DNA of 64,000 nucleotides from Clostridiales bacterium (GTDB taxonomy: Bacteria > Bacillota > Clostridia > Oscillospirales > CAG-272). The stretch is taken from assembly GCA_012514145.1 (NCBI GenBank), contig JAAZAV010000003.1, positions 13,516 to 77,515 of the forward strand, read 5' to 3'. Position 1 is the stretch's first letter; the number at the start of each line of letters is the position of its first letter. The translations under genes were made by a program, and so were the position numbers. Of this stretch, positions 21,822 through 42,548 are shown in pieces. The notes below the pieces were generated by a model. That model had not been told where the DNA came from. It ran no database searches and was given only the letters and a program-made list of their open reading frames with translations.

Positions 21822-23255
21822 ATGCACAAACGTATCGCTTCAATTCTGCTTGCCCTGCTTATGGCGCTGACCGCCCTCACCGCCTGCGGAGGCGGCTCGG
21901 GCAGCGGCTCTGATGTGACCGCCGCCGGTTCGGATGTCGCCGAGACGGTGACCGAGCCTGTTGTGACCGCCGACCCCACCAGAATCCCCCCGGATTTCAA
22001 GGTCAACTTCGACGGACAGGTCTATAAGATTTTCAACGGCTACTCCAAGGAGACCAAATACATCAGCCGCGATATCTATCCCGAGGAGATAACCGGCGAG
22101 TCGCTCAACGACTCCATGATCGAGCGCTGCACCGCCACCGAGGAGAAGCTGGGCTGCGTCATAGAGGTCACCGACGGCGATCTGGGCCGCATAAAGAGCA
22201 ATGTGGCGGCGGGCGACGACTTCGCCCATGTCACCTATGTGGACCTGAGCAACATAATGAACATGGTGGTGTCGGGCTACTGCCTCGACTTCTACGACAT
22301 GCCCAACATAGAGTTAAGCAAGGTATGGTGGGACCGCAACGCCGAGGCGAAGCTCTCCTTCCAGGGGCAGCTCTATTACACCTTCAATGACTCTATCTTC
22401 ACCCACATGGACAACTGCCGCGCCGTCTACTTCAACAAGCAGCTTGTCAATGACTTGGGGCTTGGCAACCTCTATGAGAAGGTGGAGGACGGCACCTGGA
22501 CCATGGCCGAGATGTTCCGCTGCGGCGTCGCCGCCGTAGCCGACCTTGACGGCAACGGCGTCTGGAACAACCAGGATCGCTACGGCACCCTTATGTGGGG
22601 CGTGACCGGTATCGGCGAGATGCTGCTCACCGGCTGCGACAGCGAGATCATGCTCCAGGGCGACGACGGCAACCCCTACTTCTACTGCTTCACCGAGCGC
22701 TTCGCCGAGATATATGAAAAGGTGCTGGACTTCATTAAGAAGGATCACAACTACTTCACCAGCGATGTCAACGCCTTCATGAACGGCAAATCCCTCTTCT
22801 TCGGGGCGGCGCTGAACAGCACCGGACCCATGAGAGCCATGGAGACCGACTTCGGCATTCTCCCCGCTCCCAAATATACCGAGGATCAGGAGAAATACTG
22901 GAACGTCTCCCCCAACGCCCACGCGATGATGCTCCCCGTCACCATCACCGACACCGAGTTCGCCGGCACGGTCATGGAAGAGCTGGCATACCAGTCAAGC
23001 ATCTCCCTTCTGCCCGCCTACTTCGACATAATGCTCAAGGGCAAATCCGCCCGCGACGAGGAGTCGGAGGCCATGCTCGACCTTATCCACGACAGCATTT
23101 CATATATCATCAAGATAATCGGCGTCAAATTCTCCGACAGCATCTACAGCGAAATGTCAAAGGGCAACTATGCCATATCCTCCTTCCTCGCCTCCAAGCA
23201 GGAGAGCGTGGAGCTGGAGCTTCAGAACGTGCTCGATCAGTTTGCCGGTGGCTGA
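21822..23255 (+). CDS. Extracellular solute-binding lipoprotein (paralogue of 13962-15443)
   Basis: Lipobox LTAC, G/S linker, shared internal blocks with the other SBP. Confidence 0.75.
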   Translation: MHKRIASILLALLMALTALTACGGGSGSGSDVTAAGSDVAETVTEPVVTADPTRIPPDFKVNFDGQVYKIFNGYSKETKYISRDIYPEEITGESLNDSMIERCTATEEKLGCVIEVTDGDLGRIKSNVAAGDDFAHVTYVDLSNIMNMVVSGYCLDFYDMPNIELSKVWWDRNAEAKLSFQGQLYYTFNDSIFTHMDNCRAVYFNKQLVNDLGLGNLYEKVEDGTWTMAEMFRCGVAAVADLDGNGVWNNQDRYGTLMWGVTGIGEMLLTGCDSEIMLQGDDGNPYFYCFTERFAEIYEKVLDFIKKDHNYFTSDVNAFMNGKSLFFGAALNSTGPMRAMETDFGILPAPKYTEDQEKYWNVSPNAHAMMLPVTITDTEFAGTVMEELAYQSSISLLPAYFDIMLKGKSARDEESEAMLDLIHDSISYIIKIIGVKFSDSIYSEMSKGNYAISSFLASKQESVELELQNVLDQFAGG

Positions 23256-23369
23256 ACAGCCGAAAGCAGAGCTGAACGGGAGGCTAAGCGGCAAAACGCT
23301 TTGAAAGAGGCAAAGGAAGCGTCAGCCCGCTTCGCCGAACAGCTTGCGGAGGTAAAGGAGAAAGGAAAA

Positions 23370-24140
23370 ATGAAGGAATACATACTTGAAGCCCATAGGG
23401 GCGCGGCATTCGACTGCCCCGAGTCCACCATGGCGGCGTTCAGAGCCGCACATGAGCGGGGCTACGGCATGATAGAGCTTGACACCAAGTTCACCGCCGA
23501 CAATGTCTGCGTCATACTCCACGACAACACGATAAACCGCACCGCCCGAAACAGCGACGGCAGCGCTCTGGCGAATGACATCCGCATATCCTCGCTGACC
23601 TTTGAGGAGGCTCGCAAATACGACTACGGCATCTGGATGGGCGAGAAGTTCAAGGGCGAAAAACTCGTCACCCTTGAAGAAATCCTGACATTCGCCAAGG
23701 AGAAGGAAATACCGCTGAAATTCGACAATGTGGTTCAGTCCCACAACGCCGACCAGCGCAAGATTTTCTTCGACACCATCGAAGCGGCGGACATGCCCGA
23801 CGGGCTTGTGGGCTTCACGGCGAACTCTTTCACCTACATTGAGGAGGTGCTCGGGCGCTTCCCGGACGCCTATATCCACTATGACGGACCGGTAAATGCC
23901 GACACGCTTGAACGGCTCGGCAAGCTTGTGGACAAAGAGCATCTCACCGTCTGGCTGCGCTATGACAACGCCAACACCGCCTGGAACAAGAACAAGCCGG
24001 TGGACGCCGAAAGCTCCGCCATGGTGAAGAAATACGGAAAATTAGGCGTCTGGCTGCTGACGAAGGACGAGGAACTGGTGAAGGCGGTAAACGAATTTAA
24101 CGCCGATGTCGTCGAAACCGACGGATCGCTCAGACCTTAA
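23370..24140 (+). CDS. Glycerophosphodiester phosphodiesterase (GDPD) family protein
   Basis: EAHRGAAFDCPESTMAAF..A...GYGMIELDTKFTADNVCVILHD. SD AAAGGAGAAAGGA lies upstream of the ATG at 23370 (the longest ORF starts at TTG 23301). Confidence 0.8.
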   Translation: MKEYILEAHRGAAFDCPESTMAAFRAAHERGYGMIELDTKFTADNVCVILHDNTINRTARNSDGSALANDIRISSLTFEEARKYDYGIWMGEKFKGEKLVTLEEILTFAKEKEIPLKFDNVVQSHNADQRKIFFDTIEAADMPDGLVGFTANSFTYIEEVLGRFPDAYIHYDGPVNADTLERLGKLVDKEHLTVWLRYDNANTAWNKNKPVDAESSAMVKKYGKLGVWLLTKDEELVKAVNEFNADVVETDGSLRP

Positions 24141-24157
24141 TACAACCGAACATGGAA

Positions 24158-24199
24158 CAGGGAGACCGCACGATTTTTCGGTCTCCCTGATTTCTTTTT
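24158..24199 (+). terminator. Rho-independent terminator
   Basis: cagggagaccg-(10 nt loop)-cggtctccctg followed by atttcttttt. Confidence 0.8.
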
Positions 24200-24232
24200 G
24201 TCTTCAGATCTTAGATCGTTACGGTTCGGCGC

Positions 24233-26419
24233 CTATTTGTCGCTAATCCCGCATTCGTAGAGTCCGGTGATCTCTCCGCCCAGCTTTGCGGCGTAATCGT
24301 GATAGAAGTATATCGGTATCGCCGACCAGGCGTGGCAGAGGCTTCCCGCGTCGCCGAAGGCAAGGGCGCCGTCGATGGTCTCCCAGAAAGTGGTGGCGTT
24401 ATTCGAGAGCATATGCCCCCACTTGCCCGCGATGTCGCCGAAGACATACCGGGCGTATTGCTCGGGCTCCTGCATAAGAGCTTCGTATTTGAATATGCTG
24501 TGGGACAGGGTGACGGGTATGAGCGTCTCGTCTTTAAGAGCCTTCAGCACCCGCCTTTCGCGCCCCTCATGCTCCCCGGCGGCGCCGCAGCAGACGATAA
24601 GCGCGTTGGTAAGTTCGGCGTAGTGGAAGCGCTCAAGTTCTGCGTCTTCAGCCGTCGGCAGCGGCACGCCCGCTCCCCTGATGTAGGAGGCATATGCGCC
24701 CTTATCCGCATCCCAGAAGTACCTGTTTATCGCCTCGTTGAGAGCGAAGTGGGCGTCAACATAGGTCTGTGCCTTCTCGTATTCTCCCAGCGCCGCGCAG
24801 ATGTTGCCCAGGGAATTGAAACCCATTGACACGAAGGCGCAGAGCGGAGCGTCGAAGGTCATTTTCTCCGGCGGCACGCTGCCCGAGATGGAGCCCGACA
24901 GTCCTGTCTGCCATTCGTAGAAGTTCCAGTATTGAGGCTCGGCATAGCAGGTTAAAAGTCCCTGCCTGTTGCCGAGGCGGCGCATAAAGCCCTGTGCTAT
25001 TGTCTCAAGGGCGGGAAAAATCTCCCTCAGGAAATCCACGTCCCCCGAATACTGTAAGTATTCCGCCGCCTGGGTGAGGAATATGGCGGTAAACGAGGGT
25101 ATGGTTATCGCCACCCGGGCGGGTGAGCAGAGTTCCAGCATGTCGTCATCCCGCAGCGACTGCGCCATCAGACGGATCGACGCCTTGGGGAAGTCGTACT
25201 CATCGAAGGCATAGTAGCCGCAGAGCATCTGATTCCGGGAGTCCATGGAGTAGAGCGCCTGCTCGCGCCAGGGGCAGTCCTCGTAATGCTCGTGCATACA
25301 CATGAGCAGCGTGCGGCGGCTCACCTCGTCGATCTTCGTGTGCAGGCTGTCGGCGCAGGAGAAAACCTTCTCGCTTCCCAAGGGATAATCGGTGGTGCGG
25401 ATGCCGGCGTAGAAGATATTCGCCGATTTCGCGTATATATGAAGCTGCATATATCGCATACCGAGGCGGCGGAAGGTGTGGATAAACCTGTTCCGTCCGG
25501 CGCGGGCATGATAAGAGGCGCAGAAGTTCCGGCCGCCCACATAGGCGCGTACCCGCATGTCCTCCAGATGCTCGCCCCAGCCCACAAGTATCTCGCAGTC
25601 ATTTTCGAGTTCGATGTCCAGCGACAGCACGCCGGCGTTCTCCCTGCCGGTGTCTATTAAAGCAAATATGCCCTGACTGTCCTCGGGCGCGGTGAGTTTT
25701 ACTCCCCGCTCCGAAGGCAGGCGGCGGGTGTGGCTTATGCCGCCGTAGGCAAGCGCCGCATACTGCATGCGCTGACCCAGTGTGCCGCCGGATTTCGCCT
25801 CGGTGAAGCCCCCGTTTACCGTGAGCAGCACCGGCTCGTCGTCTCCGACTATGAGTTTCTTAATCGGGCGGGCGCGTACCGGCTTCGCTTTGTCGGTCTG
25901 TATGACCTTTCGGGTGTTCGCTCTCGGATCGATGCGTTCGTCGCAGCGGAAGGAATAGCCGAGCTGTCCCGAAACCTTCTCCACTCCGGCGCCCATGGTG
26001 TAGCGGGTGTCGGCATAGCCGCCCAGAGCGGTCGAACTGGCGGCAAGAATGGCGTGCTCGCCGCTGCCGGTATCCTTTTCCTGGGTCAAAACATAGATAA
26101 GTCCCGCCGTCTCGCCCCTTATAGTGCTGCTGTCGTCGCCCTGATGCCAGCAGCGTATCTCCACCTCGTTCTCCCCCGCCTTCAGCGCGGCGGTGATGTC
26201 AAGCACATCGTAAACCTTGTCGAAGGGGTAGTCGGCAAACTGCCCGAACTCGTTGAGTTCGCCGTTTATGTAAAGGGCGTAGTTGGTGTCAACCGAAATG
26301 TAGAGCGTGCAGCGTCCGGCCGCCGGATCGGCGCTGACGGTATCGATAAATGTTGCGTAGGCGTTTACCTTTTCGATATCTTCAAGCCATATCCATTCGG
26401 CCTTGTCAAAGAGTTTCAT
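24233..26419 (-). CDS. GH78-like alpha-L-rhamnosidase family protein (six-hairpin glycosidase)
   Basis: N-terminal KAEWIW motif, central HEHYEDCPWREQALYSMDSR block typical of the Bac_rhamnosidase catalytic domain. SD GGGAGG upstream. The start overlaps the preceding gene by 14 nt. Confidence 0.7.
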   Translation of the reverse strand: MKLFDKAEWIWLEDIEKVNAYATFIDTVSADPAAGRCTLYISVDTNYALYINGELNEFGQFADYPFDKVYDVLDITAALKAGENEVEIRCWHQGDDSSTIRGETAGLIYVLTQEKDTGSGEHAILAASSTALGGYADTRYTMGAGVEKVSGQLGYSFRCDERIDPRANTRKVIQTDKAKPVRARPIKKLIVGDDEPVLLTVNGGFTEAKSGGTLGQRMQYAALAYGGISHTRRLPSERGVKLTAPEDSQGIFALIDTGRENAGVLSLDIELENDCEILVGWGEHLEDMRVRAYVGGRNFCASYHARAGRNRFIHTFRRLGMRYMQLHIYAKSANIFYAGIRTTDYPLGSEKVFSCADSLHTKIDEVSRRTLLMCMHEHYEDCPWREQALYSMDSRNQMLCGYYAFDEYDFPKASIRLMAQSLRDDDMLELCSPARVAITIPSFTAIFLTQAAEYLQYSGDVDFLREIFPALETIAQGFMRRLGNRQGLLTCYAEPQYWNFYEWQTGLSGSISGSVPPEKMTFDAPLCAFVSMGFNSLGNICAALGEYEKAQTYVDAHFALNEAINRYFWDADKGAYASYIRGAGVPLPTAEDAELERFHYAELTNALIVCCGAAGEHEGRERRVLKALKDETLIPVTLSHSIFKYEALMQEPEQYARYVFGDIAGKWGHMLSNNATTFWETIDGALAFGDAGSLCHAWSAIPIYFYHDYAAKLGGEITGLYECGISDK

Positions 26420-27446
26420 CGGTTTTTCCTCCCGTTTTGTTGTCTTTCATTGCGATGTAAAAGCAGCCGGGGGCGATATCCGGCGATGGGTGATTTTCAT
26501 TCAGCCATGCGCGGATATTGAAGCAGAGGGCGCATTTCGTTGCGTACCCTCCCCCGTCGGGCGTGAAGCCCAGACCGGCGGCGTATTCGTACAGCGCCCC
26601 GATGCCGCCGCCGAGCAGCCGGGCAAATGCCGGATATCTGCCGCGGTCGACCCGAGCCGCTAAGAACTCATCCAGCGGAAGCGCCAGTCCCGGGCAGCCC
26701 GAGGGCACCACATTGCCGTAAAGGTCGATGTGGCAGTGCCGGGGGCTGAGCAGATTGCAGGTCTCCCCGTCTTTTATGAACGCCTGAGCCGTCCGCTTCG
26801 GGTATATTCCCCCGGCTATTTCCAGCGCCCTGCCGTTCATGCCGATGCCGTATTCCCGGGCGGTGGCGGCCACATAGTCGTCCCCCAGGATTTCGCATAA
26901 TTCCTCATGGCTGTACGTACGGCCGTGATCGAGTTTGTAAAGCCGCCGCAGATAGCGCTCCTGCCAGATGAAGTAGTCCAGCCCTTCTTCCCGCAGCAGC
27001 TTACAGAGAAGCAGCACCCTCCCCAGCGGCACGAACTCGATGTGGAAAGGGTCCACCGAGGGCATGACGGTAGTCACGCCCAGTTTTCGGAGCCGTCTCA
27101 GCCGTCTGCGGACAAAGCTCTCCTTAACTGCCCAGAAGGCGTTGGTCTCGATGTAGTCGATGCCGATTCCCCGCTTCCCCAGCGCCTCAATCAGCCCGCA
27201 GAGAGCGGCGAAGTTGATAAACGGCTCTCCGCCGCCGATATGCACCGAATCCACCCCCGCGGCCGACAGCTTTTCGGCAAGCTCGCCGGCTTTCTCCCGG
27301 GTGATGAAGTCGCGCATTCCCCCGACGCCGCGAAGACTTTTGCTGTATCGGTAGGAAGAAAACATACAGTGCCGGCAGGCGGCGGTACATATATAGTTTG
27401 TTATAATCCCCGAATACATCGGGGTGTTTGCCCGACCTCTTATCAC
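26406..27446 (-). CDS. Radical SAM protein (non-PflA type), with C-terminal Cys-rich region
   Basis: CTAACRHC = CxxxCxxC at residues 20-27 (DNA 27366-27389), GGGEP SAM-binding motif, extra cysteines CNLLSPRHCHIDLYGNVVPSGC and CALC. The GTG start overlaps the upstream stop (GTGA). Confidence 0.8.
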   Translation of the reverse strand: MIRGRANTPMYSGIITNYICTAACRHCMFSSYRYSKSLRGVGGMRDFITREKAGELAEKLSAAGVDSVHIGGGEPFINFAALCGLIEALGKRGIGIDYIETNAFWAVKESFVRRRLRRLRKLGVTTVMPSVDPFHIEFVPLGRVLLLCKLLREEGLDYFIWQERYLRRLYKLDHGRTYSHEELCEILGDDYVAATAREYGIGMNGRALEIAGGIYPKRTAQAFIKDGETCNLLSPRHCHIDLYGNVVPSGCPGLALPLDEFLAARVDRGRYPAFARLLGGGIGALYEYAAGLGFTPDGGGYATKCALCFNIRAWLNENHPSPDIAPGCFYIAMKDNKTGGKTDETL

Positions 27447-28681
27447 TTGGCGGTCACAAGTACCCCGCCGCAGGAGGCAATTTCAAAGGAATAGACTCCG
27501 TCCTCCGATCTTAGAAGGGGAATATCCGACCCGGCGGTCAGTTTCACCGAACAGCCGTCGGCGGCGCGGAAGGTCACCTTATGCATACCCGGAGAGGTGT
27601 CATAGGGGTCGGCGGCAGAGCAGACAAAGAGAGCCGCTCCGCTGCAGCCGCTCCGCGGCGCCATCTGCCCGACTATCAGCGGAGAGCCGTCCCCGGCTTT
27701 GAAGTCGAAGAATACGCCGGTATCCAGCGAGTCGACGGCCTTATAGCCGAAGGAAGCGGTACGGGCGAAGTCCTCCCTGCCCCCGAAGCCCACAAAATGG
27801 GTTGAGACGCGGCGGAACTTCATGTATTCCTCGCTCAGCGCGCGAAGCTCGGCGTTGACCGTCTTTAACTTTTCGTACTGCTCTGTTTTCTTGCCCTCTC
27901 CGTCAAGCACCTGATTATGCCACCAGCCGGCGGTGTAGCATGCCCATATGATATTCTCCGCGCCGAACGCCAGGGAGGAATATGCCTGCATACGCAGCTG
28001 GTTTTCGGTTATCCACTTTTCGGGATGCAGCGAATTTACCTGCAGCACTATCCACATGCCGCGTCCGGTATTCCGGCAGGCATCGGCGACTATCGCCAGA
28101 TTCTCATAATGCCCGGCTACCGACGCCGAATACATGTAGAAGTCATAGCAGATGTAGTCGGACGCCACACATTGGCAGTAGCGCTCGATATGCTCGGCAT
28201 AGGTGGCGGTGCCTAATTGGTTAACCGTCTCGGTATCGTTGTTTTTCGCCACCGAGGCGTAATTCGGATAGAGATTCAGATAGGCGAACTGATTGGGGAA
28301 TAGCCGCTCCATGCGGTTGAGAACTTTGCCGTAATGGGGGAAGTCAAGCGCCGAAGGCTCGTCTCCGGCGTCGATGCCCCAGATCGCCGGATGGTCGGCA
28401 AAGGAAGCCGCGGCGGCATCGTATTTTTCGAGGGGATTTGTCGCCGCCATTTTGCCGGCGTTGTCGCCGTCGCCGCCCCACCAGCCGGGAACGACACCGC
28501 TCACTATGGCGCCCACACCGTATTTCTCAAACAGGTCGAGCGCCGGGCGGTCGTTGCCCATGCAGACGACAAAATCTATGCCGCATTCGCTTAACTCCTT
28601 TATGTGCCGCTCGCTGCGGGCATAGGGCTGGAGTATATAGGTTCCTACATTGAGCCTGCTTCTGTCCATGCGTCTGTTCAT
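27443..28681 (-). CDS. Hypothetical protein, possibly a clan GH-A-like TIM-barrel glycoside hydrolase with a C-terminal beta-sandwich
   Basis: IDAGDEPS and NLYPNY blocks are reminiscent of GH42/GH5-type acid/base regions. No signal peptide. Weak assignment. Confidence 0.35.
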   Translation of the reverse strand: MNRRMDRSRLNVGTYILQPYARSERHIKELSECGIDFVVCMGNDRPALDLFEKYGVGAIVSGVVPGWWGGDGDNAGKMAATNPLEKYDAAAASFADHPAIWGIDAGDEPSALDFPHYGKVLNRMERLFPNQFAYLNLYPNYASVAKNNDTETVNQLGTATYAEHIERYCQCVASDYICYDFYMYSASVAGHYENLAIVADACRNTGRGMWIVLQVNSLHPEKWITENQLRMQAYSSLAFGAENIIWACYTAGWWHNQVLDGEGKKTEQYEKLKTVNAELRALSEEYMKFRRVSTHFVGFGGREDFARTASFGYKAVDSLDTGVFFDFKAGDGSPLIVGQMAPRSGCSGAALFVCSAADPYDTSPGMHKVTFRAADGCSVKLTAGSDIPLLRSEDGVYSFEIASCGGVLVTAK

Positions 28682-28697
28682 ATATCATTCTCCCGTT

Positions 28698-29717
28698 TCA
28701 AAGTATTGTTTTCAGTGCTTTCATCACCTCATCCGCGTAGATGCGGTGGCCGAGGTTGTTCACATGCCAGTTGTCGGCAAAGAGCCGTTCAAAGCGCTCC
28801 GCCTCGCCGAGTCCGGCAAGCTCCCGCTCCATGGCGGCGTTGGCGTCCGCCATAATCAGGGGACAGTTAATCTTCAACCCCACGGCCGCCCCGCGTGAGG
28901 CTTCGATGAAGTCGTTGTAGGGCGAATCGTTATGGGGCATCGCCTGTGCGCCGCACACCGGCGACACGGTTAGCAGTATGACAGCCCGTTCGGCGATCCC
29001 GCCGAATTTCACCAGCAGCCGGGCAAGGTTCTCCCGGTAGGTCTCGGGGGTGCAGCGGGTGAGCCAGTCGTTTATCGTATGGGCTTCGGCTGCAACAATG
29101 TGCGGTCTGAACACTTCCGCGCAGTAGGGGAAACATGTGTCAGCCATGCGAACCGTGCTGCAGCAGCCAACTCCCTGGCGGATGACCGCGTACTCCCCCG
29201 CGTAGCGGGCTGCCGATTCGATCAGCACCTCGCCGCTTATAGGGGCGACGGTCACGCTCCCGCCCGCTTCCAGCCATACGGGAATGTCGAAGAAGGACAG
29301 CTCGCCGTATCGGGGCTGCTTTACCGCAAGGGTCAGTTTTTCATCCCGCCCGGGCGAAGTCAGCCGCACCTCGGCGGGCTCTGTACGGGCGGCGAACCGC
29401 AGGGTGTAGAACGAATCGCGCGACTCATCGCCCTTCAGGGTAATCGGCTTTGTCACAATGGCGCAGCCGGAGCGGGTGTCAAGCACGAACATCCCCGCAA
29501 GACGGTCGAATGTTAATTCAACCGATTCGCTGCCGGTGAGCTTATCCACTTCCTCGCGCACAAGGTTCACATAGTCGCGGCCGTAAAAACGCATGTTGCG
29601 CCCGATGCCCTCACCGTTGTATGGATTGTACGCCACGCTTTCGTCGGTCATCGTGAAGCCGTCGGCTCCCTGCCCGCAGGTGTGGGAATCGCCGGTGAAG
29701 AGGATGATTTTGACCAT
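28698..29717 (-). CDS. SGNH/GDSL family hydrolase (esterase/deacetylase)
   Basis: Block I ILFTGDSHTCGQG, block V DNWHVNNLGH (DxxH). Confidence 0.8.
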   Translation of the reverse strand: MVKIILFTGDSHTCGQGADGFTMTDESVAYNPYNGEGIGRNMRFYGRDYVNLVREEVDKLTGSESVELTFDRLAGMFVLDTRSGCAIVTKPITLKGDESRDSFYTLRFAARTEPAEVRLTSPGRDEKLTLAVKQPRYGELSFFDIPVWLEAGGSVTVAPISGEVLIESAARYAGEYAVIRQGVGCCSTVRMADTCFPYCAEVFRPHIVAAEAHTINDWLTRCTPETYRENLARLLVKFGGIAERAVILLTVSPVCGAQAMPHNDSPYNDFIEASRGAAVGLKINCPLIMADANAAMERELAGLGEAERFERLFADNWHVNNLGHRIYADEVMKALKTIL

Positions 29718-29720
29718 ATG

Positions 29721-30815
29721 TTATACCAACAGAGCCTTGGTTGTGCGCCGCGCCTCAAGGTCGGCGTAGGCTTCGTTTATCTTCTCAAGGGGATAGTCTG
29801 TGGCGGTGGCGGCAATGGCGGCATGCAGCTCGGGATGCTCACAGAGGAAGTCGACATAGGCGTAGACGTCGGAGAATGAATACTGTGAGGAGCCTATGAT
29901 CCGCAGCGCGTTGAAGGTGATAAGATGTGGCTCGATCGCCACCGGTCCACGGTCGGAATACTGCCCCGGAACGAGGTAGACACCGCGGTTGCGAAGCAGT
30001 CTTATGCCGAAGGGCAGAGCATTTGCCCCTCCGCTCGCCTCTATTACAAGATCCGCGCCCAGTCCGCCTGAAAGCTCTTTGACGACAGCGGTTATCTTCT
30101 CCTCGCCGTCACCGGCAAGTGAATACACCTGTTTCAACCCAAGGGAGGCAAGCATTGCGCGCTTTCCGTCGTCGGGTCTGCCCGCGGTGACAAGCAGCAG
30201 GTTCGGCACCCCGGCGGCGGCAAGATACATAGCCGCGAAGCAGCCCACGGCGCCGCTGCCCTGCACCACCGCCACATTCACGCTATCAAGCGACAGTCCC
30301 GCGCCGGCGCCGAGTTTGAACGCATGCATACAGGTGGGACCGGCGCAGGCGAACACCGCCGCGGTCCTGGGGTTGACGGCGGCGGGAATCCTGATAAGAT
30401 TCGACACCGGCGCATAGCACATTCTGCCGTAGCCGCCGTGGAAATGTGGGATTTCGGCGGGGTCGCCGCTGTTTGTCACCCCCATATTCACGCAGTTGGC
30501 GTCGTCGCCCGTTTTGCAGAGCAGGCACTCGCCGCAGGGAACGGCAATGTCGGAGATGACGTAATCCCCCACAGCCAGACCGTTGGTGTCGCCCTCGCCC
30601 AGCGCCTCAACTTTTCCGACAAACTCATGGCCGATAATGCGATCGGGGGTTGAGCCAAGTCTGCCGCTGTGAATGTGCAGGTCCGTGCCGCAGATTCCCG
30701 ACGCCACAAGGCTCATGGCGGCGGTTCCGGCGGAGGGCTTTGTCACCGGGTACTCTCGAAGCTCGAAGGGCTTGTCAATTCCCGTGAATATAGCTGCATA
30801 TGATGTTTTATTCAT
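29721..30815 (-). CDS. Zinc-dependent medium-chain alcohol/polyol dehydrogenase
   Basis: GICGTDLH, GHEFVGKV, structural-zinc CGECLLCKTGDDANC and a GSGAVG Rossmann motif. Confidence 0.9.
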   Translation of the reverse strand: MNKTSYAAIFTGIDKPFELREYPVTKPSAGTAAMSLVASGICGTDLHIHSGRLGSTPDRIIGHEFVGKVEALGEGDTNGLAVGDYVISDIAVPCGECLLCKTGDDANCVNMGVTNSGDPAEIPHFHGGYGRMCYAPVSNLIRIPAAVNPRTAAVFACAGPTCMHAFKLGAGAGLSLDSVNVAVVQGSGAVGCFAAMYLAAAGVPNLLLVTAGRPDDGKRAMLASLGLKQVYSLAGDGEEKITAVVKELSGGLGADLVIEASGGANALPFGIRLLRNRGVYLVPGQYSDRGPVAIEPHLITFNALRIIGSSQYSFSDVYAYVDFLCEHPELHAAIAATATDYPLEKINEAYADLEARRTTKALLV

Positions 30816-30872
30816 GTCAATCCTTTCGCTGGTTATGTCTTATCTATGTTTCCTATTATGCGTGTCGGACTA

Positions 30873-32978
30873 TCATCCGTGCTCGGTGCGTTTCAGAATG
30901 TCCTCCTGGACGTCGCGCCCCAGGTGGATATAGTATGCCGAGAAGCCCGACACCCGCACCACAAGCGAGGCGTATTCGGAGGGATTCTCCATGGCGTCCT
31001 TCAGCACGGCGCGGGAGACCGAGTTTATCTGCATCTCCTGACCGCCGAGGCTAAAATAAGTGCGGATTATCGACGCCAGCTTTGCGCGCCTGTCGTCGTC
31101 GGAGAACATCTCGGGGGAGTACTTCTGATTTACCACCGTGCCGCAGGCGGCGTAGGTGTAGTCGGGGCGGGACAGGGAGCGCACCGCCGCGGTGGGTCCC
31201 TTCTTATCTCTGCCGTGCATGGGAGAGGCGGCGTCGCTGATCGGCTCGTGGGCTTTGCGCCCGTCGGGAGTGGCGCCGATCTCTCTGCCCGCGCCGATAT
31301 TGGCAACGTTTGAGGCGATGGCTATGTAGAAGCCGCCGCCGTCCCGGGTCTTGTGATTTTTGAAGATATTGTAGTGAAATTCGTTGAACCAGACGGCGTA
31401 CTTGTCCACCTCCGGCTCGTCGTTGCCGTACTTGGGGAGCCCCAGAAGCAGCTGCCGCTCCTCCTCATAACCCTCGAAGTCGGCTTTCAATATGTCGCGC
31501 AGATGTTCGAGGGTGAAGAGCCCGCGGTTGTATACCGCCTCCTCTATCGCATAGAGCGAGTCCGCCATGGTGGCGATGCCCATGGCACAGGCGCCGTGTA
31601 CCGAAGGGTACTTTGTGCCGCCCCGGTTTATATCAAGCCCCCGCTCGATGCACTCGGGACAGCCGCAGGACAGGAAGGGCTGCTGATAGTTCTTATAGTC
31701 GTAGCGCTCGTTCTCGTTGCGGAAGCGGCGCACATATTCGTCTGCGCCGTGCTTCATCTGAGCCTCCAGCGCCGCCATGAAGTCGCCCATGGTCTTTAGT
31801 TCCCCGGCGGGCGGAGTTTCCACGCCGAAGGATTTCCCGTCGAAGCCGAAGCCGCCGCAGAGGGCGCGCTCGATATAGACGGGAGAGTTGTAGCGGCCGT
31901 CCGACCAGGGCGGCTGCTTGCCGGGCAGGAAATTCTCGATACAGCCCACCATGCAGTAATCCCTGGCGTCCTCAAGCTCGTAGCCGTAGCGCATGAGGGC
32001 GGGGATATTCACCTCGTCGTTCATCAGCGCCGGATAGCCGAGACCGGTGCCGATTACCTTCAGACATTCGTCGAGGAAGCGGGGTTCGGCGTCCTTGTGG
32101 AGCCGCGCCGACAGGTTGGGACCGGGAATGTTGCAGCGCCGCACCGCCTCCAGCACCGCATAGGTCAGGTCGGTCACCGCGCTTTTGCCGTCCTCCCGCT
32201 TAACGCCGCCGATGGCGATGTTGCAGACGTTGTCGCCGCCGAAATAGCGGGATTCGCCTATTTTCAGCAGGGTGCAGGCGAGATAATCCACCGCGCTCTC
32301 GTAATCCAGTCTCCCGGCGGCTGTGTCCGCCTCATAGTAGGGGTAAAGATAGCGGTCAAGCCTCCCCAGAGCCTGGGCATAGCGCCCCTCAAGGTAGTAG
32401 ACCGTGTGCACCAGCCAGACGAACTGCAGCGCCTGGGGAAAGGTTTCGGGGGGCTTATCCGCGATATGCCGGCAGTTGGCGGCGATCTCTTTCATGCCTT
32501 TAGCCTCCGCGTCGGCGGCATATGACAGGGCATGGCGGGAGAATGCCTCCATGGTTATCCGGGCGGAGCGCAGGAAGTCCTGCTTCTCGGGCTCCTTGTG
32601 ACGCTCGAGAGAAGCGTCGATGTCGGCGATGATGCCGCCAATACCTCTCGACAGCATGTAGGGATAGTCGGGGGCGAAATGGTCGGCGTTTGTGCCGAAG
32701 TGGTTGCGGCCGTAGGAGTTCACCATAGAGTCGGCGTAAGCGCCGAGATTGTCCGCGTCATGACCGAAAAAGCCGCGTATGGTGCCGGCTATAAGGTCGT
32801 TTGCGTAGACCGGCGTCGCCGTTCCGTCGAGCAGCGACGCGAAGGCATAGGCTCTGCCGATGACATTCGCATCGTTCAGGTGCTCACGGTAGCCCTTCCA
32901 CATAAGATAATTGCGCAGGCAGCCGCCCTCGGGTCGTTTGTTGACCTCTGAGCGGAGCGCCTCAAGTCGTTCTGACAT
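30873..32978 (-). CDS. Glycyl radical enzyme (PFL2/dehydratase-lyase type), unusually short at 701 aa
   Basis: Glycyl loop VVRVSGFSAYY (Gly678, DNA 30945-30947) 24 aa from the C-terminus. Thiyl loop MVGCIEN (Cys346 at DNA 31941-31943, Glu348). SD GGAGGAAAA upstream. Confidence 0.9.
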   Translation of the reverse strand: MSERLEALRSEVNKRPEGGCLRNYLMWKGYREHLNDANVIGRAYAFASLLDGTATPVYANDLIAGTIRGFFGHDADNLGAYADSMVNSYGRNHFGTNADHFAPDYPYMLSRGIGGIIADIDASLERHKEPEKQDFLRSARITMEAFSRHALSYAADAEAKGMKEIAANCRHIADKPPETFPQALQFVWLVHTVYYLEGRYAQALGRLDRYLYPYYEADTAAGRLDYESAVDYLACTLLKIGESRYFGGDNVCNIAIGGVKREDGKSAVTDLTYAVLEAVRRCNIPGPNLSARLHKDAEPRFLDECLKVIGTGLGYPALMNDEVNIPALMRYGYELEDARDYCMVGCIENFLPGKQPPWSDGRYNSPVYIERALCGGFGFDGKSFGVETPPAGELKTMGDFMAALEAQMKHGADEYVRRFRNENERYDYKNYQQPFLSCGCPECIERGLDINRGGTKYPSVHGACAMGIATMADSLYAIEEAVYNRGLFTLEHLRDILKADFEGYEEERQLLLGLPKYGNDEPEVDKYAVWFNEFHYNIFKNHKTRDGGGFYIAIASNVANIGAGREIGATPDGRKAHEPISDAASPMHGRDKKGPTAAVRSLSRPDYTYAACGTVVNQKYSPEMFSDDDRRAKLASIIRTYFSLGGQEMQINSVSRAVLKDAMENPSEYASLVVRVSGFSAYYIHLGRDVQEDILKRTEHG

Positions 32979-33028
32979 TTTATTTTCCTCCGTTGCGGGT
33001 TTCGGATGCGGTTATTTACATCTTAATC

Positions 33029-33057
33029 ATTATATCAGATATTCCCCGTTCTGTCGA
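33029..33057 (-). promoter_or_regulatory. Sigma-A-like promoter TCGACA-17-TATAAT for the glycyl radical enzyme operon
   Basis: -10 at 33029-33034 and -35 at 33052-33057 on the minus strand, about 50 nt upstream of the GRE start. Confidence 0.55.
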
Positions 33058-33146
33058 CATGTTTGTCGGAATTTTTATGACGTGTACGCGGCACCGACAT
33101 GTGTCATGAGCCGATATGCCGGCGAAAAAAGACATTCAACCCGCGA

Positions 33147-33175
33147 TTGCCATATATCCCGGTTTGTGGTATAAT
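33147..33175 (+). promoter_or_regulatory. Sigma-A-like promoter TTGCCA-17-TATAAT (TG-extended)
   Basis: -35 at 33147-33152, -10 at 33170-33175, 24 nt upstream of the ATG at 33199. Confidence 0.6.
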
Positions 33176-33198
33176 AAAAAATGACAAGGAGTGACGGC

Positions 33199-36100
33199 AT
33201 GAAAAAAATAATATTATTTGGCATCATATTTTTGCTGACGCTGACGACGCTGGCGGGATTTTTGCTGTTATCCTGCAGCCCGGAGGGCGGCGAAACAACA
33301 AACGAAAGTGAGGTTACAGCCATGCAGACCACACAGAAGATCACGATTCCCGACGCAGAGGTGACGAAGCGCCCCGCTTCCTACCTGCTGCTCCACGACA
33401 CCTCCTACAACGGGGCAAAAGAGGGTATACGCTCGGGCTGGCGCTATGACTGCCGGGGCGGTATACCCGCCGAGGAGCTGAAACTGAACTACGGCACCCT
33501 GACCGACATAAGCACCGAATACGGCACCGCCATGATACGCGAATTCAACCGCATCGACTCGGGCATACTGATGCTCGAGACCTCGGTTTCGCTCACCGGC
33601 GGCTTCGACGGGTTCTCGCTGGAGTTCCGCAACGACGCCGATGAGCCGGTGTATAAGCTGATAACCCGTAACGGCGGCTGGTGCGCGGCAACCGACAGCG
33701 GCGAAGTGCCGATCGAGGGCGCCTCGGGGCGCGAGTCTTACAGCTTCCGGGTTTTCATCGACTTTGACCGGGGCGAGAGCATTACATATATTGACGGGGT
33801 ACAGAGAGACAACCGTTCGCTGATAAAATTGGGACCTGCCGCCAATATTCTGAACTTCCGCTTCGCCACCGACGAGGCAAGCACCGCCATCGCGACTCTC
33901 GGCGGGATACGCATCACCGCCAACTACGCCGTGAACGAGGACTTCGGAACCCACCCCGAGGGCAGCCTCGGCTTCGGCTGGCAGGGCGAGGGCGCGGCTG
34001 CATCCGGCGGCATGCTCAAAGTGACATCGGGTTATGCAAAGCGCTCCTTTGAGCCGGTGGGAGGCGTGGTTTCGCTGCTCACCGAATTCAACCTTACCAG
34101 AAGCCAGGCGATAACCGTCACCGCGGCGGCCGGAGGCGAGCCGGTGGTGTCATTCACCACCGATAAAATCGCTTTCAACGCCAACGGCAGCGAGATTTAC
34201 ACTCCTTACATGCCGAATCTCTGGTACCGGCTGCGCATGGACATCGACACGGCGGCGTCATCGGCGCTGATATGGATAAACGGCAGGAAAACAGCCGAAG
34301 TTCCACTGCTTGCCGTGACAAATCATATCGACAGCGTGCGCATTGAGAATTCCGACAGCTCTCCGGTGAGCTTCGACGGCGTGTCGGTGTTCGAGAAGAT
34401 ACTCGCCGACGACTACCCCGCCGCACCCGTAAAACCGGCGGGCGAGAGCGAATATACCGTGGGCATGAACGTCTGCTCCCTCTGGAAAGAGGGCACCCAC
34501 TGGGGCTGGAGCTGCGTCTCGGCATATGAGGATCCCGAGCCGGTGTTGGGCTACTACGATGAGGGCGTGCCCGAAACCGCCGACTGGGAATTAAAGTATA
34601 TGGCCGAGCACGGCATCGACTTCCAGGCGTTCTGCTGGTACGCCACCGCTTCCGACGCTCCGCTGAAAGCCGGCCACCTTGCCGCCCAGCTGCACGACGG
34701 CTACATGTACGCCGAGTACAGCGACGCGGTGAAGTACTGCCTTATCTGGGAGTGCCAGAACGCCGCCCGACCCTCGAATTTCAACTCATGGCGCGACTAT
34801 TTCGTGCCCTATCTGCTTGAATATTACATCAAGGACAGCCGCCATATGGTGATTGACAATCAGCCGGTGCTCTGCGTTTTCGGCGCGGGACGGCTCAGCG
34901 AAACCCTGGGCGGCGAGGCAAATGTCAAAAAGTGCTTCGACTATCTCGAGGAAGAGGTGCGCAAGCTGGGCTTTGACGGTATGATCTACCTCTCCTGCGG
35001 CTCGGCGTCCGATTCGCTTGCCAAGATGGGCTTTGACGGCAGCTATGCCTATAACTGGGGTACCTCGGGCTGCGAGCTTGCCACCAACGTAAACGGCATA
35101 CTGAACAGCGCCCGCAACAAGTCGATGTATACAGTTCCCACCATAAGCGTGGGCTTCAACAGCATCCCCTGGCACGGCATCCGCTACCCGATGATGACGG
35201 TTGAGGACTTCAACGCCGCCCATACCTGGGTGCGCGATGAATATCTGCCCAAGTACGCGGATAAAGACAGCTGGCAGGACAAGTTTGTCATGCTCTCCAC
35301 CTGGAACGAGTACGGCGAGGGAACCTATATCATGCCCTCGGCGGGCAACGGCGGCTTCGGCTATCTTGACGTTATCCGTTCGGTTTACGCCGGCGCCGAG
35401 CCGGACGAGAGCCTGAACACCGTCCCCACCGCCGCCCAGAGGGAGCGGATAAATCACCTTTATCCCCAGTACCGGCGGCTGCTGCGCAAGACCGGCTACT
35501 ACTCCGAGACGGTGGACGTGTCGGCCCTCACCCCGATATTCGAGATTGATTACAGCTCCAAGGCTGATGTATCGGTCGGCAGCGCGCTGAATCCGGTGTT
35601 CGCCGCCGACGGGCTCAGCGGCACGGTAAACGGCGACACGCTTATTATTAAGAGCGGCATCAGCGTCAAGGCCTCCGAATCGCCCTATATTCGGGTGACC
35701 CTGGACGTGCCGAAGGGCACCCCCTGCGAAGTGTTCTACATCACCGACAAGGACACCTCCTGGACGCAGAACAAGAGCGCCCAGTTCACCGCCAAGGGCG
35801 AGGGGCTCACCGAGTATCTCATAAACATGAGCGAAAAGAACCTGTGGCGGGATACCGTTGTGGGCTTCCGCGTCGACCCGGGTCAGACGGCTGCCGGCGC
35901 CGGCGACCCCGAACACAACTACTTCCGGCTGGTCAAAGCCGAGTTCCTTAACTGCCCCGAACGGCCTTCCCGCACCATATATATAAACGGCCGCGAATGT
36001 GAACTGCAGCTTTGGCCCGAGCTGTCGGAGAAGGGCGAAATCCTCATCTCCTGGGACGGCAGGGTGGCGCTTCACTACCGGCTCAGCGCCTTTGATACCT

Positions 36101-36795
36101 GGGATTATGCCGCAAAGACTCTCACCATCGAGATGAACGGCCATACCGCCGTATTCACCGTCGGCAAGGACAGCTGGACGCTGGACGGCGAAACCAGACA
36201 GCTTGGCTATCCCCTCTACGCCACAGACGGACTGCCCATGCTGCCCCTCGCCGATCTCTGCGAGGCGGTGGGCTACGCCTGTTCGCTCAACGAAAAGGGC
36301 GAGCTGTGTATCGACACGCCGCTCAAAGCCCACTATGAGCATGTGGGGAGCCGGATAAAGGGTCAGTGGGAGTTCGACACTCTCGGCGACACCGAAGGCT
36401 GGAGTTCATCACACATGTCGCTGTTCGTCTCGGGCGGCGGACTTACGGTCAACTCTATCTCCGACACCACCGATCCCATAATCTCCTACGGCGGGGATAT
36501 CGACCTCACCGCCTCCGAATACACCGCCCTTGAGGTGCGCTGCCGCTACAAGTATACTTCGGCATACGCCCAGCATATTTCGGTCTACTTCACCACCGAC
36601 AGCGACGGCACCATGAGCGAAACCATGTCTATAAAACTGCCCATGAGCTCCACCGATTCGGGCGGCGAATGGGAGACCCTGCGCGCCGACCTTACCGCCA
36701 TTCCGTCATGGAAGGGCATTATCAAGCAGCTGCGCTTCGATCCCTTCAACGCGGTGGGCAGCATGGAGATCGACTATATCCGATTCGTCAGATAA
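33199..36795 (+). CDS. Large surface lipoprotein with a central WbsX/GH99-like domain and a copper-amine-oxidase-N-like (stalk) domain
   Basis: Lipobox LLSC after a hydrophobic signal. LGYYDEG..HGIDFQAFCWY and STWNEYGEGTYIMPS blocks (WbsX/GH99-like). YINGRECEL...LPMLPLADLCEAVGY (Cu_amine_oxidN1-like). Confidence 0.6.
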   Translation: MKKIILFGIIFLLTLTTLAGFLLLSCSPEGGETTNESEVTAMQTTQKITIPDAEVTKRPASYLLLHDTSYNGAKEGIRSGWRYDCRGGIPAEELKLNYGTLTDISTEYGTAMIREFNRIDSGILMLETSVSLTGGFDGFSLEFRNDADEPVYKLITRNGGWCAATDSGEVPIEGASGRESYSFRVFIDFDRGESITYIDGVQRDNRSLIKLGPAANILNFRFATDEASTAIATLGGIRITANYAVNEDFGTHPEGSLGFGWQGEGAAASGGMLKVTSGYAKRSFEPVGGVVSLLTEFNLTRSQAITVTAAAGGEPVVSFTTDKIAFNANGSEIYTPYMPNLWYRLRMDIDTAASSALIWINGRKTAEVPLLAVTNHIDSVRIENSDSSPVSFDGVSVFEKILADDYPAAPVKPAGESEYTVGMNVCSLWKEGTHWGWSCVSAYEDPEPVLGYYDEGVPETADWELKYMAEHGIDFQAFCWYATASDAPLKAGHLAAQLHDGYMYAEYSDAVKYCLIWECQNAARPSNFNSWRDYFVPYLLEYYIKDSRHMVIDNQPVLCVFGAGRLSETLGGEANVKKCFDYLEEEVRKLGFDGMIYLSCGSASDSLAKMGFDGSYAYNWGTSGCELATNVNGILNSARNKSMYTVPTISVGFNSIPWHGIRYPMMTVEDFNAAHTWVRDEYLPKYADKDSWQDKFVMLSTWNEYGEGTYIMPSAGNGGFGYLDVIRSVYAGAEPDESLNTVPTAAQRERINHLYPQYRRLLRKTGYYSETVDVSALTPIFEIDYSSKADVSVGSALNPVFAADGLSGTVNGDTLIIKSGISVKASESPYIRVTLDVPKGTPCEVFYITDKDTSWTQNKSAQFTAKGEGLTEYLINMSEKNLWRDTVVGFRVDPGQTAAGAGDPEHNYFRLVKAEFLNCPERPSRTIYINGRECELQLWPELSEKGEILISWDGRVALHYRLSAFDTWDYAAKTLTIEMNGHTAVFTVGKDSWTLDGETRQLGYPLYATDGLPMLPLADLCEAVGYACSLNEKGELCIDTPLKAHYEHVGSRIKGQWEFDTLGDTEGWSSSHMSLFVSGGGLTVNSISDTTDPIISYGGDIDLTASEYTALEVRCRYKYTSAYAQHISVYFTTDSDGTMSETMSIKLPMSSTDSGGEWETLRADLTAIPSWKGIIKQLRFDPFNAVGSMEIDYIRFVR

Positions 36796-39489: not shown

Positions 39490-40857
39490 TTACTCCCGCG
39501 TTTCAAAATATTCGGCAAGCCGGGCGGCAAGCAGCTTCGAGAAAGCCGTGCTGCCCTTTGTGTTCATGTGTCCCCAGTCGGAGAAATTGGTGTGGTCGGC
39601 GTTTATCTCTCCCGCCAGCTCAATGTTGTAGTTGAAGAAGGTTATCCCACGGGCTTCGGCTATCTCCTCAAGGCGCCTGTTGCCCATATCGTCCATGCTC
39701 CTCGCCCGTCTGCCCTCGATATACTCGGGGCATTCTACAAAGACCACATGAATTCCGTAATCCTCGAACACATCCAGCAGCCGGTCAAGCGCCGCCCACT
39801 GATCCTCTTTCAGGTCGCAGGGCTGATCCTTGGCTCTGCCGTTGTAATCGGCTTCCCAGGGCACATAGCCCTTGTAGTATTCGCTGGTTATGTTGTTGTC
39901 CTTGTCCACCTGCCGCTCGTGGACATAAACCGGGACTTCGGGCAGCGGCGCGTCTGAATCGATGTCGTCAGCCGTCTCCTCCTGCCCTTCGGCGGCGGGG
40001 AGCGCGTCCGCGTCCCTTCCCCCGATATACCAGCCCAGCATCTCGGGTATGCGGTCGCGGGAGTAGATGACGGGTATGCGGTTGAACGCCCAGGTCAGCA
40101 CTTCGTCAAGGTCCAGCCAGTTGATTTTATCAGCCCGCGTGGCTTCTTTTTCGGCTTCGGCCGCCTCCTGAGCCGCTAATTTTTCTTCAATCTCGGCGGC
40201 GCGTTCGGCGTCCTCTGCCTGCATGAGTCGGGTCTTGCGGATCTTGCGCATTATAGCCGCCGGACAGTCGGGGTTGGTGTCAAAGTCAATCCGCCTCCAC
40301 AGCCAGCCGTCGTCGCACATGAACCAGTCGACCGAAAAGACTATCGTTTCGGGTATCGGGTAGCCCGATTCGAGAAACACCTTCCACCAATCTAAATAAT
40401 ACTTCGGATTCGATCCGTTCAGGGCGAAGTTGAACCAGGAGCGCCGGGGTATGGCTTCTTCGAGATATTTCGGGTTGATGCCGTGAGCCGCGTGGGAGGT
40501 GCCTATGATTATGGTGTCGGCGTTATACAGGTTCTCGAACATCTCGTAGAACTGGCCGTAGTAGTGGTAGCAATGGCGGGTCTTGTATTTCTGATAGAAC
40601 TGCTCGTACTGCTCCGCCTTGCGCACGGCGGCTTCTGCCGCCAGACGAGCGGCCTCGGCTTCGGTTTTCGCGCCGGCAAGGGCTGCTTCGGCTGCGGCGG
40701 CACGGGCGGCAGCCTCCTCCACCACCGCCAGTTCGGCGTCAAGAAAGCCCTGCATGGCGGCGTTCAGCCCGAACACCATGAGAAAGGCGGCTGCCGTCAC
40801 GATAAGCCCCTTAATGAAAAATTCGGGCAGTGATTGTAATTCGTGTTTTTCTGTCAT
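39490..40857 (-). CDS. Membrane-anchored DltD/AlgJ/SGNH-like partner of the MBOAT O-acyltransferase
   Basis: One N-terminal TM helix, an Ala/Glu-rich coiled segment, IIIGTSHAAHG and a C-terminal SDWGHMN (DxxH-like) block. Sits 11 nt downstream of the MBOAT gene. Confidence 0.45.
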   Translation of the reverse strand: MTEKHELQSLPEFFIKGLIVTAAAFLMVFGLNAAMQGFLDAELAVVEEAAARAAAAEAALAGAKTEAEAARLAAEAAVRKAEQYEQFYQKYKTRHCYHYYGQFYEMFENLYNADTIIIGTSHAAHGINPKYLEEAIPRRSWFNFALNGSNPKYYLDWWKVFLESGYPIPETIVFSVDWFMCDDGWLWRRIDFDTNPDCPAAIMRKIRKTRLMQAEDAERAAEIEEKLAAQEAAEAEKEATRADKINWLDLDEVLTWAFNRIPVIYSRDRIPEMLGWYIGGRDADALPAAEGQEETADDIDSDAPLPEVPVYVHERQVDKDNNITSEYYKGYVPWEADYNGRAKDQPCDLKEDQWAALDRLLDVFEDYGIHVVFVECPEYIEGRRARSMDDMGNRRLEEIAEARGITFFNYNIELAGEINADHTNFSDWGHMNTKGSTAFSKLLAARLAEYFETRE

Positions 40858-40868
40858 AATTTACCCGC

Positions 40869-42317: not shown

Positions 42318-42548
42318 GCCGCGACCTGCGTCTTTCCTGGTATTTGATGTCCGCATCATTTTACTCCATCGGCGCAACGATTTCCAGTGGTTGATGCAAT
42401 TTTGGTAATATGCTGAAATTCACGATGCCGATTTGGGCATTATGCGGATAACAGGGAGGATGGGTCAACCTGACATCATGCATTCGGCAAGATACCCTCC
42501 GTGTCCGCCGTCAAAGGCATACCCGGAGGGTATTTGATATGCTGCGGA

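Follow-up and report, generated by a model that had tools for sequence, protein, structure and literature searches.

The window analysed here is a stretch of 64,000 nucleotides from a Clostridiales bacterium (GenBank assembly GCA_012514145.1, contig JAAZAV010000003.1), and the term refers to this whole stretch throughout. According to open reading frame (ORF) coordinates, a block of six minus-strand genes spans positions 24233-32978, and the first of these genes encodes a glycyl radical enzyme (GRE). GREs give anaerobes access to chemistry that would otherwise be impossible without oxygen. The genes of the block and two features at its ends were as follows.

30873-32978, minus strand: gene 1, GRE, 701 amino acids (aa)
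29721-30815, minus strand: gene 2, Zn-dependent medium-chain dehydrogenase, 364 aa
28698-29717, minus strand: gene 3, SGNH hydrolase (esterase), 339 aa
27443-28681, minus strand: gene 4, 412-aa protein without a Pfam family
26406-27446, minus strand: gene 5, radical SAM protein, 346 aa, GTG start
24233-26419, minus strand: gene 6, GH78-like alpha-L-rhamnosidase candidate, 728 aa
33029-33057, minus strand: predicted sigma-70-type promoter-like site TCGACA-17-TATAAT with TG extension, 11 of 12 consensus positions
24159-24188, no strand assigned: GC-rich hairpin AGGGAGACCG-N10-CGGTCTCCCT, 10 bp, between the convergent GH78 and GDPD genes

In 5' to 3' direction, gaps of 57, 3 and 16 nt separate the first four genes of the block, and the last two junctions overlap by 4 and 14 nt. 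The 4-nt GTGA overlap of genes 4 and 5 was confirmed by reading the sequence (...GCC AAG TGA / GTG ATA AGA...). TCGACA-17-TATAAT was the top-scoring minus-strand promoter-like site within 23900-33300 in a promoter scan, and no convincing intergenic terminator was detected inside the block in a terminator scan. The latter allowed loops of up to 8 nt. The hairpin at 24159-24188 exceeds this limit and was found by direct reading; a T-run is located 3' of it on the plus strand, and the hairpin is the probable end of the transcription unit. Gene order, lengths, spacings, overlaps and the promoter site had been described in an initial annotation of this DNA, and all were reproduced from the ORFs and the sequence. 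Since an independent metagenome contig (L097) was 100% identical across the junction of the SGNH and 412-aa genes, this junction is not an assembly artefact. Matching contigs of 98-100% identity are present in Logan and ENA assemblies (P0001, P0121 and L097). Profile and BLAST searches, as recommended in the initial annotation, were performed for each product; domain calls were obtained or their absence was noted gene by gene.

The GRE was assigned by the Pfam domains PFL-like (PF02901, 412.5 bits) and Gly_radical (PF01228, 102.1 bits), which exceed their cut-offs by a wide margin. Its glycine loop RVSGFSA (G678) and its cysteine loop GCIEN (C346, E348) were invariant across the clade of its relatives, and the Cys-x-Glu (CXE) motif of eliminases and isomerases is present as C346-I-E348. 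Relatives retrieved in a protein search formed a dense family of 700-760 aa with 55-71% identity, mostly from metagenome-assembled genomes of Clostridia, and included a near-copy with 98% identity. When one genome per GTDB species was searched, a relative was encoded in 304 genomes, from Clostridia; clade members occur in Clostridia of the gut, the rumen and digesters. The approximately 200 columns that were invariant in the alignment of the clade were all intact in the window GRE.

Compared with solved GRE structures, the enzyme scored 250-345 bits, every characterised GRE being about equally distant. The score against NCBIfam TIGR01774 (PFL2/glycerol dehydratase subfamily) was 451.5 bits, below the cut-off of 678.2. 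Scores against the NCBIfam equivalogs all amounted to about one third of the cut-off or lower (bits/cut-off): CutC (TIGR04394) 348/1050, HypD 342/1100, HpfG and HpsG 335/1000 and 315/1000, PflD-type (PRK09983) 337/1109, HPAD 220/1150, IAD 205/1100, and pyruvate formate-lyase (PFL) 121/994. The GRE could not be assigned to a characterised enzyme, as all NCBIfam cut-offs were missed and the PDB matches were distant. Tight clustering with a characterised enzyme, which the initial annotation had named as a refuting outcome, was not seen in either set of scores. Judged by its sequence, the enzyme is a member of a large clade, as yet uncharacterised, of short (approximately 700-720 aa) CXE GREs.

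Active-site residues were mapped to glycerol dehydratase (PDB 1r8w) by pairwise HMMER alignment; residue numbering and roles of the latter enzyme follow the GRE literature and general background on the enzyme. C433, E435, H164, D447 and N156 of 1r8w are kept as C346, E348, H100, D360 and N92 of the GRE, whereas H281, S282, Y339 and Y640 of the pocket are changed to Y200, A201, C252 and A555. Kept and changed positions were invariant or nearly so in the clade. Because the catalytic residues are kept and the pocket-lining residues replaced, the enzyme may perform the chemistry of glycerol dehydratase, in which a carbinol radical undergoes 1,2-elimination, on a bulkier substrate.

Conservation of the gene neighbourhood was assayed by tblastn searches of at least 80 loci of the best relatives, for which a clade activase and the six proteins of the window served as queries. 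GRE loci whose downstream flank extended over 2.5 kb or more were regarded as informative, which applied to 64. Of these 64 loci, 48 carried the dehydrogenase gene on the strand of the GRE gene, with 48-74% identity of the homologues, and 11 the SGNH esterase gene, likewise on that strand. The usual order of the cassette was GRE-activase-(SGNH)-dehydrogenase, and a divergent gene for an AraC regulator was located upstream of the GRE gene in approximately 30 loci.

The dehydrogenase comprises the domains ADH_N (69 bits) and ADH_zinc_N (52 bits), and its translation carries the catalytic and structural Zn ligands in GICGTD, GHE and CGECLLCKTGDDANC. It reached no NCBIfam equivalog cut-off; the best PDB match was the structural-genomics protein TM0436 (1vj0, 111 bits), and no close characterised relative was found.

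The SGNH protein scored 18 bits against Pfam GDSL, below the cut-off of 32.9. Four blocks were conserved in the 13 GRE-linked members, i.e. GDSH (S11), G174/G182, NDW (N216-D217) and DxWH (D315, H318). The Ser-Asp-His triad is intact, an insertion of approximately 110 aa is present, and no signal peptide was found. With 123 representatives in a set of 1.84 billion proteins, the family is a narrow one; GDS[HL] and DxxH were kept in approximately 95% of the 92 full-length ones. The four blocks are shared with SGNH carbohydrate esterases, e.g. rhamnogalacturonan or xylan acetylesterases, from which the gene 3 product differs by its Pfam score below the cut-off, its unique insertion, its cytoplasmic nature and its narrow family. 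A reciprocal scan of approximately 16 informative SGNH loci yielded six that were linked to a GRE and one more linked to the dehydrogenase; the association is frequent, not exclusive. Other SGNH loci adjoin genes for GH28, GH95, GH36, the glucuronoyl esterase family CE15, other GDSL esterases and EamA transporters. Inside one cassette (L096, 12117-13244), a gene for an Eis-like GNAT acetyltransferase (Acetyltransf_9 and SCP2_2) is inserted between the SGNH and dehydrogenase genes, and a pair for acyl transfer and hydrolysis is thereby present in that cassette.

The initial annotation had reported that a PflA-type activase and bacterial microcompartment (BMC) shell genes are lacking at the operon, and this was confirmed for the whole window. 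No PflA-type activase was found in the 64 kb by Pfam analysis of all ORFs of at least 200 aa and by tblastn, which gave no meaningful match at E<=10, and no BMC shell gene by the same Pfam analysis and tblastn with a PduA probe. A second GRE was likewise absent from the window according to Pfam analysis of all long ORFs and tblastn. Probes for tblastn were a real clade activase and PflA and PduA sequences; the PflA probe serves as a positive control, since it matched 53 related loci. The Pfam scans of the window gave the housekeeping genes PurL, IleRS, DivIVA, MiaA and LspA plus accessory genes. BMC families were also absent from the top Pfam families among 117 neighbours of clade GREs.

A canonical ferredoxin-type activase gene lies directly 3' of the GRE gene in 39 of the 64 informative loci, and the clade activases typically carry a ferredoxin insert and are approximately 290-300 aa long. 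The window GRE grouped with L001, L095, L038 and L096 in a neighbour-joining tree. An adjacent activase gene was present in none of the loci of this subclade and the SGNH gene in all, and the activase-less arrangement occurred in at least five other subclades. Since 39 of 64 relatives carry an activase and loci without one were met repeatedly, in several subclades, lack of the gene is ordinary; judged by these gene orders it is a recurrent variant of the clade and not a sign of new biology. The lack of BMC genes is common for many GREs. Neither absence was therefore retained as a notable feature of the operon, as which both had been listed. The simplest reading of the comparison is that the window GRE is activated in trans. 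In L001 (3393-6130) and L008 (1467-4201), loci of the closest relatives, a second, short GRE of approximately 660 aa and only 28% identity is encoded together with an activase at a distance of a few kb from the cassette; this second activase could serve both GREs and illustrates a possible origin of activation in trans.

Genes 4 and 6 encode proteins of a different distribution. The 412-aa protein had no match in Pfam or NCBIfam and no meaningful sequence match in the PDB. Its AlphaFold model (pLDDT 83) consists of a (beta/alpha)8 barrel and a C-terminal beta-sandwich, and was matched in Foldseek by GH158, GH35, GH66 and GH42 enzymes with TM scores of 0.4-0.56. DEP (107-109) and AEN (241-243) are invariant in the family, and E108 and E242 are placed on strands 4 and 7 of the model; in clan GH-A, the Glu acting as acid/base follows strand 4 and the nucleophilic Glu strand 7. 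The protein is probably a new glycoside hydrolase similar to clan GH-A. More than 1200 homologues with 64-68% identity were found, in varied carbohydrate-related contexts including an MGH1-like glycoside hydrolase, an AXE1-like esterase and GH42; no GRE was encoded near the examined loci. Lacking a Pfam or NCBIfam model, the family is a candidate new glycoside hydrolase family. The GH78 candidate matched Bac_rhamnosid6H with 76 bits (cut-off 24.5) and Bacillus RhaB (2okx) with E=5e-42 over residues 252-706, and contains a six-hairpin (alpha/alpha)6 domain.

Among 77 other GRE loci, a full-length GH78 homologue was found in none (one 71-aa fragment matched in L057), a homologue of the radical SAM protein in none, and the 412-aa protein gave one weak, distant match. 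Because the three genes were not seen to accompany this GRE at other loci and each is derived from its own large family, the GH78, 412-aa barrel and radical SAM genes are, on these sequence comparisons, additions specific to this lineage. Conservation of the GRE neighbourhood, proposed as a check in the initial annotation, was borne out for the dehydrogenase and the SGNH esterase and failed for the other three genes.

Further neighbours of the clade GREs are scattered genes for GH51, a CUT1 ABC transporter, GH31, GH106 (two loci), GH10 and GH38. In the Pfam census of the 117 same-strand neighbours, the most frequent family occurred in five loci only, and no tell-tale kinase, aldolase or transporter that would name the substrate was found, the neighbours being too heterogeneous. 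The occurrence of the SGNH family beside GH28, GH95, GH36 and CE15, and of the clade GREs beside several glycoside hydrolase families and CUT1, supports the plausibility of the glycan-related role proposed earlier, and points, short of proof, to plant cell-wall sugars or polyols, possibly O-acylated, as substrate.

It was considered rather probable that the operon consists of a conserved GRE-dehydrogenase-SGNH cassette and lineage-specific additions, and that the GRE performs a 1,2-elimination on a sugar-like, deacylated substrate, the carbonyl product of which is reduced by the dehydrogenase. Genes 1-3 would represent the local copy of the clade-conserved cassette. The SGNH esterase, a cytoplasmic enzyme with intact catalytic apparatus, would strip O-acyl groups from an imported plant-glycan sugar or polyol. 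In the GRE, the radical would pass from G678 to C346, and a hydrogen atom would be taken from a carbinol carbon. By analogy with known enzymes, E348 would deprotonate the hydroxyl group at that carbon and the neighbouring C-O substituent would leave, either by 1,2-elimination or by a C-O cleavage of a ring or ether as in YbiW. Reduction of the carbonyl product with NAD(P)H by the dehydrogenase may provide an electron sink for the fermenting cell. The glycyl radical would be installed, as in the clade, by a canonical activase encoded outside the window. Genes 4-6, i.e. the GH-A-like barrel, the EpeE-like radical SAM protein and GH78, would form a second layer, each from its own widespread family, in which the two putative glycosidases (412-aa protein and GH78) plausibly trim glycosides and feed the pathway. 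The sequence of deacylation, radical elimination and reduction by an alcohol dehydrogenase, as suggested initially, agrees in part with the results, given the kept CXE motif and the conserved dehydrogenase and SGNH partners; a linkage of the other three genes to it was not found.

Several points weigh against this cassette model. The six genes form one transcription unit as judged from their spacing only, and the residue mapping to 1r8w is a pairwise alignment and not a structure. As the SGNH gene is present in only approximately 17% of the clade loci, deacylation is not obligatory clade-wide. The dehydrogenase could instead produce the substrate of the GRE, by analogy with sulfoacetaldehyde reductase in the case of IslA. 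An activase for the window GRE was not seen in the 64 kb of genome examined. The link to glycans is circumstantial, because the neighbours other than dehydrogenase, activase, SGNH and AraC are heterogeneous.

An accidental gene order, in which the six genes share a promoter by chance and genes 4-6 act on unrelated substrates while only genes 1-3 cooperate, was considered unlikely. Genes 4, 5 and 6 never accompany this GRE elsewhere, their families have varied neighbourhoods, and the neighbours of the cassette differ between loci, all of which would be expected from such an accident. The tight spacing and overlaps without an internal terminator, the recurrence of several glycoside hydrolase families beside clade members and the location of the SGNH family itself in glycan-degradation loci argue for the opposite, and for these reasons a loose functional theme of the operon is likely.

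That gene 1 encodes a divergent form of glycerol or 1,2-propanediol dehydratase, with the dehydrogenase producing 1,3-propanediol or propanol, was judged improbable. Glycerol would be supplied from glycerophosphodiesters or lipids via the nearby GDPD genes and esterases, and propanediol via rhamnose released by GH78. Two GDPD genes are present in the window, genes for secreted lipase-like proteins follow the cassette in five loci, and rhamnosidases are encoded beside clade members (GH78 here, GH106 in the two loci mentioned). The GRE retains the Cys, Glu, His and Asp with which glycerol dehydratase performs catalysis, and the latter enzyme is among its two best PDB matches. However, the score lies below the TIGR01774 cut-off as given above, and at four positions that contact glycerol or line its pocket the whole clade conserves residues that are smaller than, or differ from, those of glycerol dehydratase. 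The GDPD genes lie on the strand opposite to the operon or at a distance of 20 kb, and their presence is not a conserved feature of the clade. Known dehydratase systems employ Fe-type alcohol dehydrogenases, and those for propanediol also microcompartments.

Among the closest known systems are the B12-independent glycerol dehydratase DhaB1 of C. butyricum (1r8w) and propanediol dehydratase (5i2a). The PFL-like fold, the glycine loop, the CXE cysteine loop and the equivalents of H164, D447 and N156 are shared, and in both cases the carbonyl product is probably reduced by a neighbouring dehydrogenase. Scores were approximately 340 bits with DhaB1 and 311 bits with propanediol dehydratase, and the N-terminus of the window GRE is approximately 60-90 residues shorter. 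In contrast to these systems, the partner of the GRE is a Zn-dependent medium-chain enzyme and not an Fe-type alcohol dehydrogenase, an SGNH partner is added, and a microcompartment is absent.

The weakest explanation concerns gene 5. The radical SAM protein has the Pfam domains Radical_SAM and Fer4_12 and a CX3CX2C motif at C20/C24/C27. Its family of more than 500 members (approximately 326 aa) keeps five C-terminal cysteines (C229, C238, C251, C305 and C308), which suggest an auxiliary cluster. Only weak matches to YydG and MoaA were obtained in NCBIfam. Nearest to the model of the protein (pLDDT 84) in Foldseek were EpeE/YydG, followed by MoaA, BlsE, viperin and PqqE, and the pyruvate formate-lyase activating enzyme (PFL-AE) was not among the top 50 matches. 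The clade activase and PflA probes gave no BLAST match to the protein at E<=10, and the family alignment contains neither the glycine-loop motif DGxGxR nor the ferredoxin insert, the Cys-rich C-terminal region being present instead. The 77 GRE loci without a homologue include other activase-less ones; no GRE was encoded in four loci of radical SAM homologues, where one homologue is followed by a GH92 gene, the others stand alone and the contexts are unrelated. By sequence, motifs, fold and genomic linkage, a PflA-type activase was rejected. It is hardly credible that the protein replaces the PflA-type enzyme as a non-canonical activase, although it is the sole plausible candidate in the operon, shares the N-terminal CX3CX2C and the generic Pfam pair with activases, and is encoded by a gene whose overlaps with its neighbours suggest co-expression. 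On the evidence of sequence and predicted fold, it is EpeE/MoaA-like and not an activase, i.e. a member of another branch than the PflA-type activases that are the usual neighbours of the clade GREs and absent from the window. In L087 (8001-8978), a GH92 gene starts 14 nt after the radical SAM homologue, and in the window the gene overlaps the GH78 gene; a carbohydrate-related role of the family is hinted at.

Also among the closest known systems are the GRE isomerases YbiW and PflD (8id7, 8id0), which cleave C-O bonds of 1,5-anhydrohexitol-6-phosphates. Like the GRE in the cassette model, they are carbohydrate-acting CXE GREs without microcompartments, and their C-O cleavage beside a deprotonated hydroxyl group is a plausible model for sugar-ring chemistry. 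The window GRE matched them with approximately 297-321 bits. According to a GRE review of June 2026, they act on sugar phosphates delivered by the phosphotransferase system (PTS) and have aldolase partners; in contrast, no kinase, PTS or aldolase is conserved with the clade, in which the GRE is accompanied by a dehydrogenase and an esterase. CutC was the top PDB match (345 bits) and shares the CXE motif, but is separated by the TIGR04394 score listed above and by the lack of BMC genes in the window that was scanned.

The June 2026 review lists as eliminases GD, PD, HpfG, HypD, HpyG, HpzG, CutC, IslA/IseG and HpsG, and as isomerases HplG, YbiW and PflD, and states that whole GRE clades are still without an assigned reaction. 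Literature on the present clade, or on a GRE linked to an esterase, SGNH, GDSL or dehydrogenase gene, was not found in open-access papers including this review. The earlier remark that no described pathway was known in which a GRE is translationally coupled to glycoside hydrolases and an esterase agrees with the open-access literature searched.

Two genes next to the operon and several others in the window were also analysed.

21822-23255, plus strand: 477-aa protein without a Pfam family, homologues of which recur beside the GRE clade
33181-36795, plus strand: 1204-aa protein with WbsX-like and copper amine oxidase N-terminal-like domains, divergent from the operon

The gene for the 477-aa protein lies 1 kb past the end of the operon and is not a member of it. 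Its family, approximately 480-495 aa elsewhere and with an N-terminal lipoprotein signal in members outside the window, is represented in at least six other GRE loci. Homologues are located directly 3' of the GRE gene in L048 (12195-13676), L052 (11981-13468) and L059 (12191-13675), 3' of the dehydrogenase gene in L001 (13316-14788) and L044 (11963-13435), and upstream in L012. The family could comprise extracellular proteins for binding or processing of the GRE substrate. The 1204-aa gene is preceded by a promoter-like site at 33147-33175 (11 of 12 positions). A relationship of this WbsX-like protein to the GH99-like lipoproteins near clade GREs was rejected, as the proteins are unrelated.

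Secreted lipase-like proteins (Lip_C, HSFGG motif) are encoded 3' of the GRE and dehydrogenase genes in one subclade that lacks the activase, in some cases twice (L033, 13350-14597; L049, 13360-14604; L028, L035 and L032). For some clade members, an ester or lipid context is thereby suggested in place of a glycan one. In the window, the GDPD-family genes are located at 3787-4632 and 23301-24140 (both plus strand); one is fused to DUF4996 and followed by a gene for a PIG-L-type deacetylase (4734-5474). A gene for an MBOAT O-acyltransferase followed by one for a weakly DUF1574-like protein (39490-42377, minus strand) resembles pairs for polymer O-acylation of the DltB/AlgI type, and ABC-2 transporter genes are adjacent (42549-45161). 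A gene for a MiaB/RimO-like methylthiotransferase lies beside a gene of the LarA-like lactate racemase family (9410-12180, minus strand); apart from gene 5, the former is the only gene of the window for a radical SAM protein, and it does not encode an activase.

The new element is a GRE clade with a conserved dehydrogenase and esterase partnership and no assigned reaction, which is best filed under the known CXE eliminases and isomerases. The comparative data separate the genes of the system (activase, dehydrogenase, SGNH and AraC) from non-members, and remove the idea of the operon radical SAM protein as a new type of activase. Clade activases, e.g. the one encoded in L003 (12126-13022), are now available as candidates for activating the GRE, and the search for the substrate is narrowed to plant-glycan-derived, possibly O-acylated, sugars or polyols. 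A more specific proposal, put forward tentatively and with the odds against it, is that the clade GREs cleave a C-O bond of a free plant cell-wall sugar or sugar derivative by an undescribed radical reaction, such as the loss of water from a hexose or deoxyhexose, or of methanol or acetate from such a sugar, and that the dehydrogenase reduces the resulting keto-sugar. The GRE clades newly assigned so far have revealed metabolite flows in the gut, i.e. from choline to trimethylamine, from hydroxyproline, from sulfonates to H2S, and from anhydro-sugars. If the proposal is true, sugar C-O cleavage and the dehydrogenase would together amount to a new pathway of anaerobic carbohydrate metabolism, which would also act as an electron sink and be widespread among gut Clostridia.

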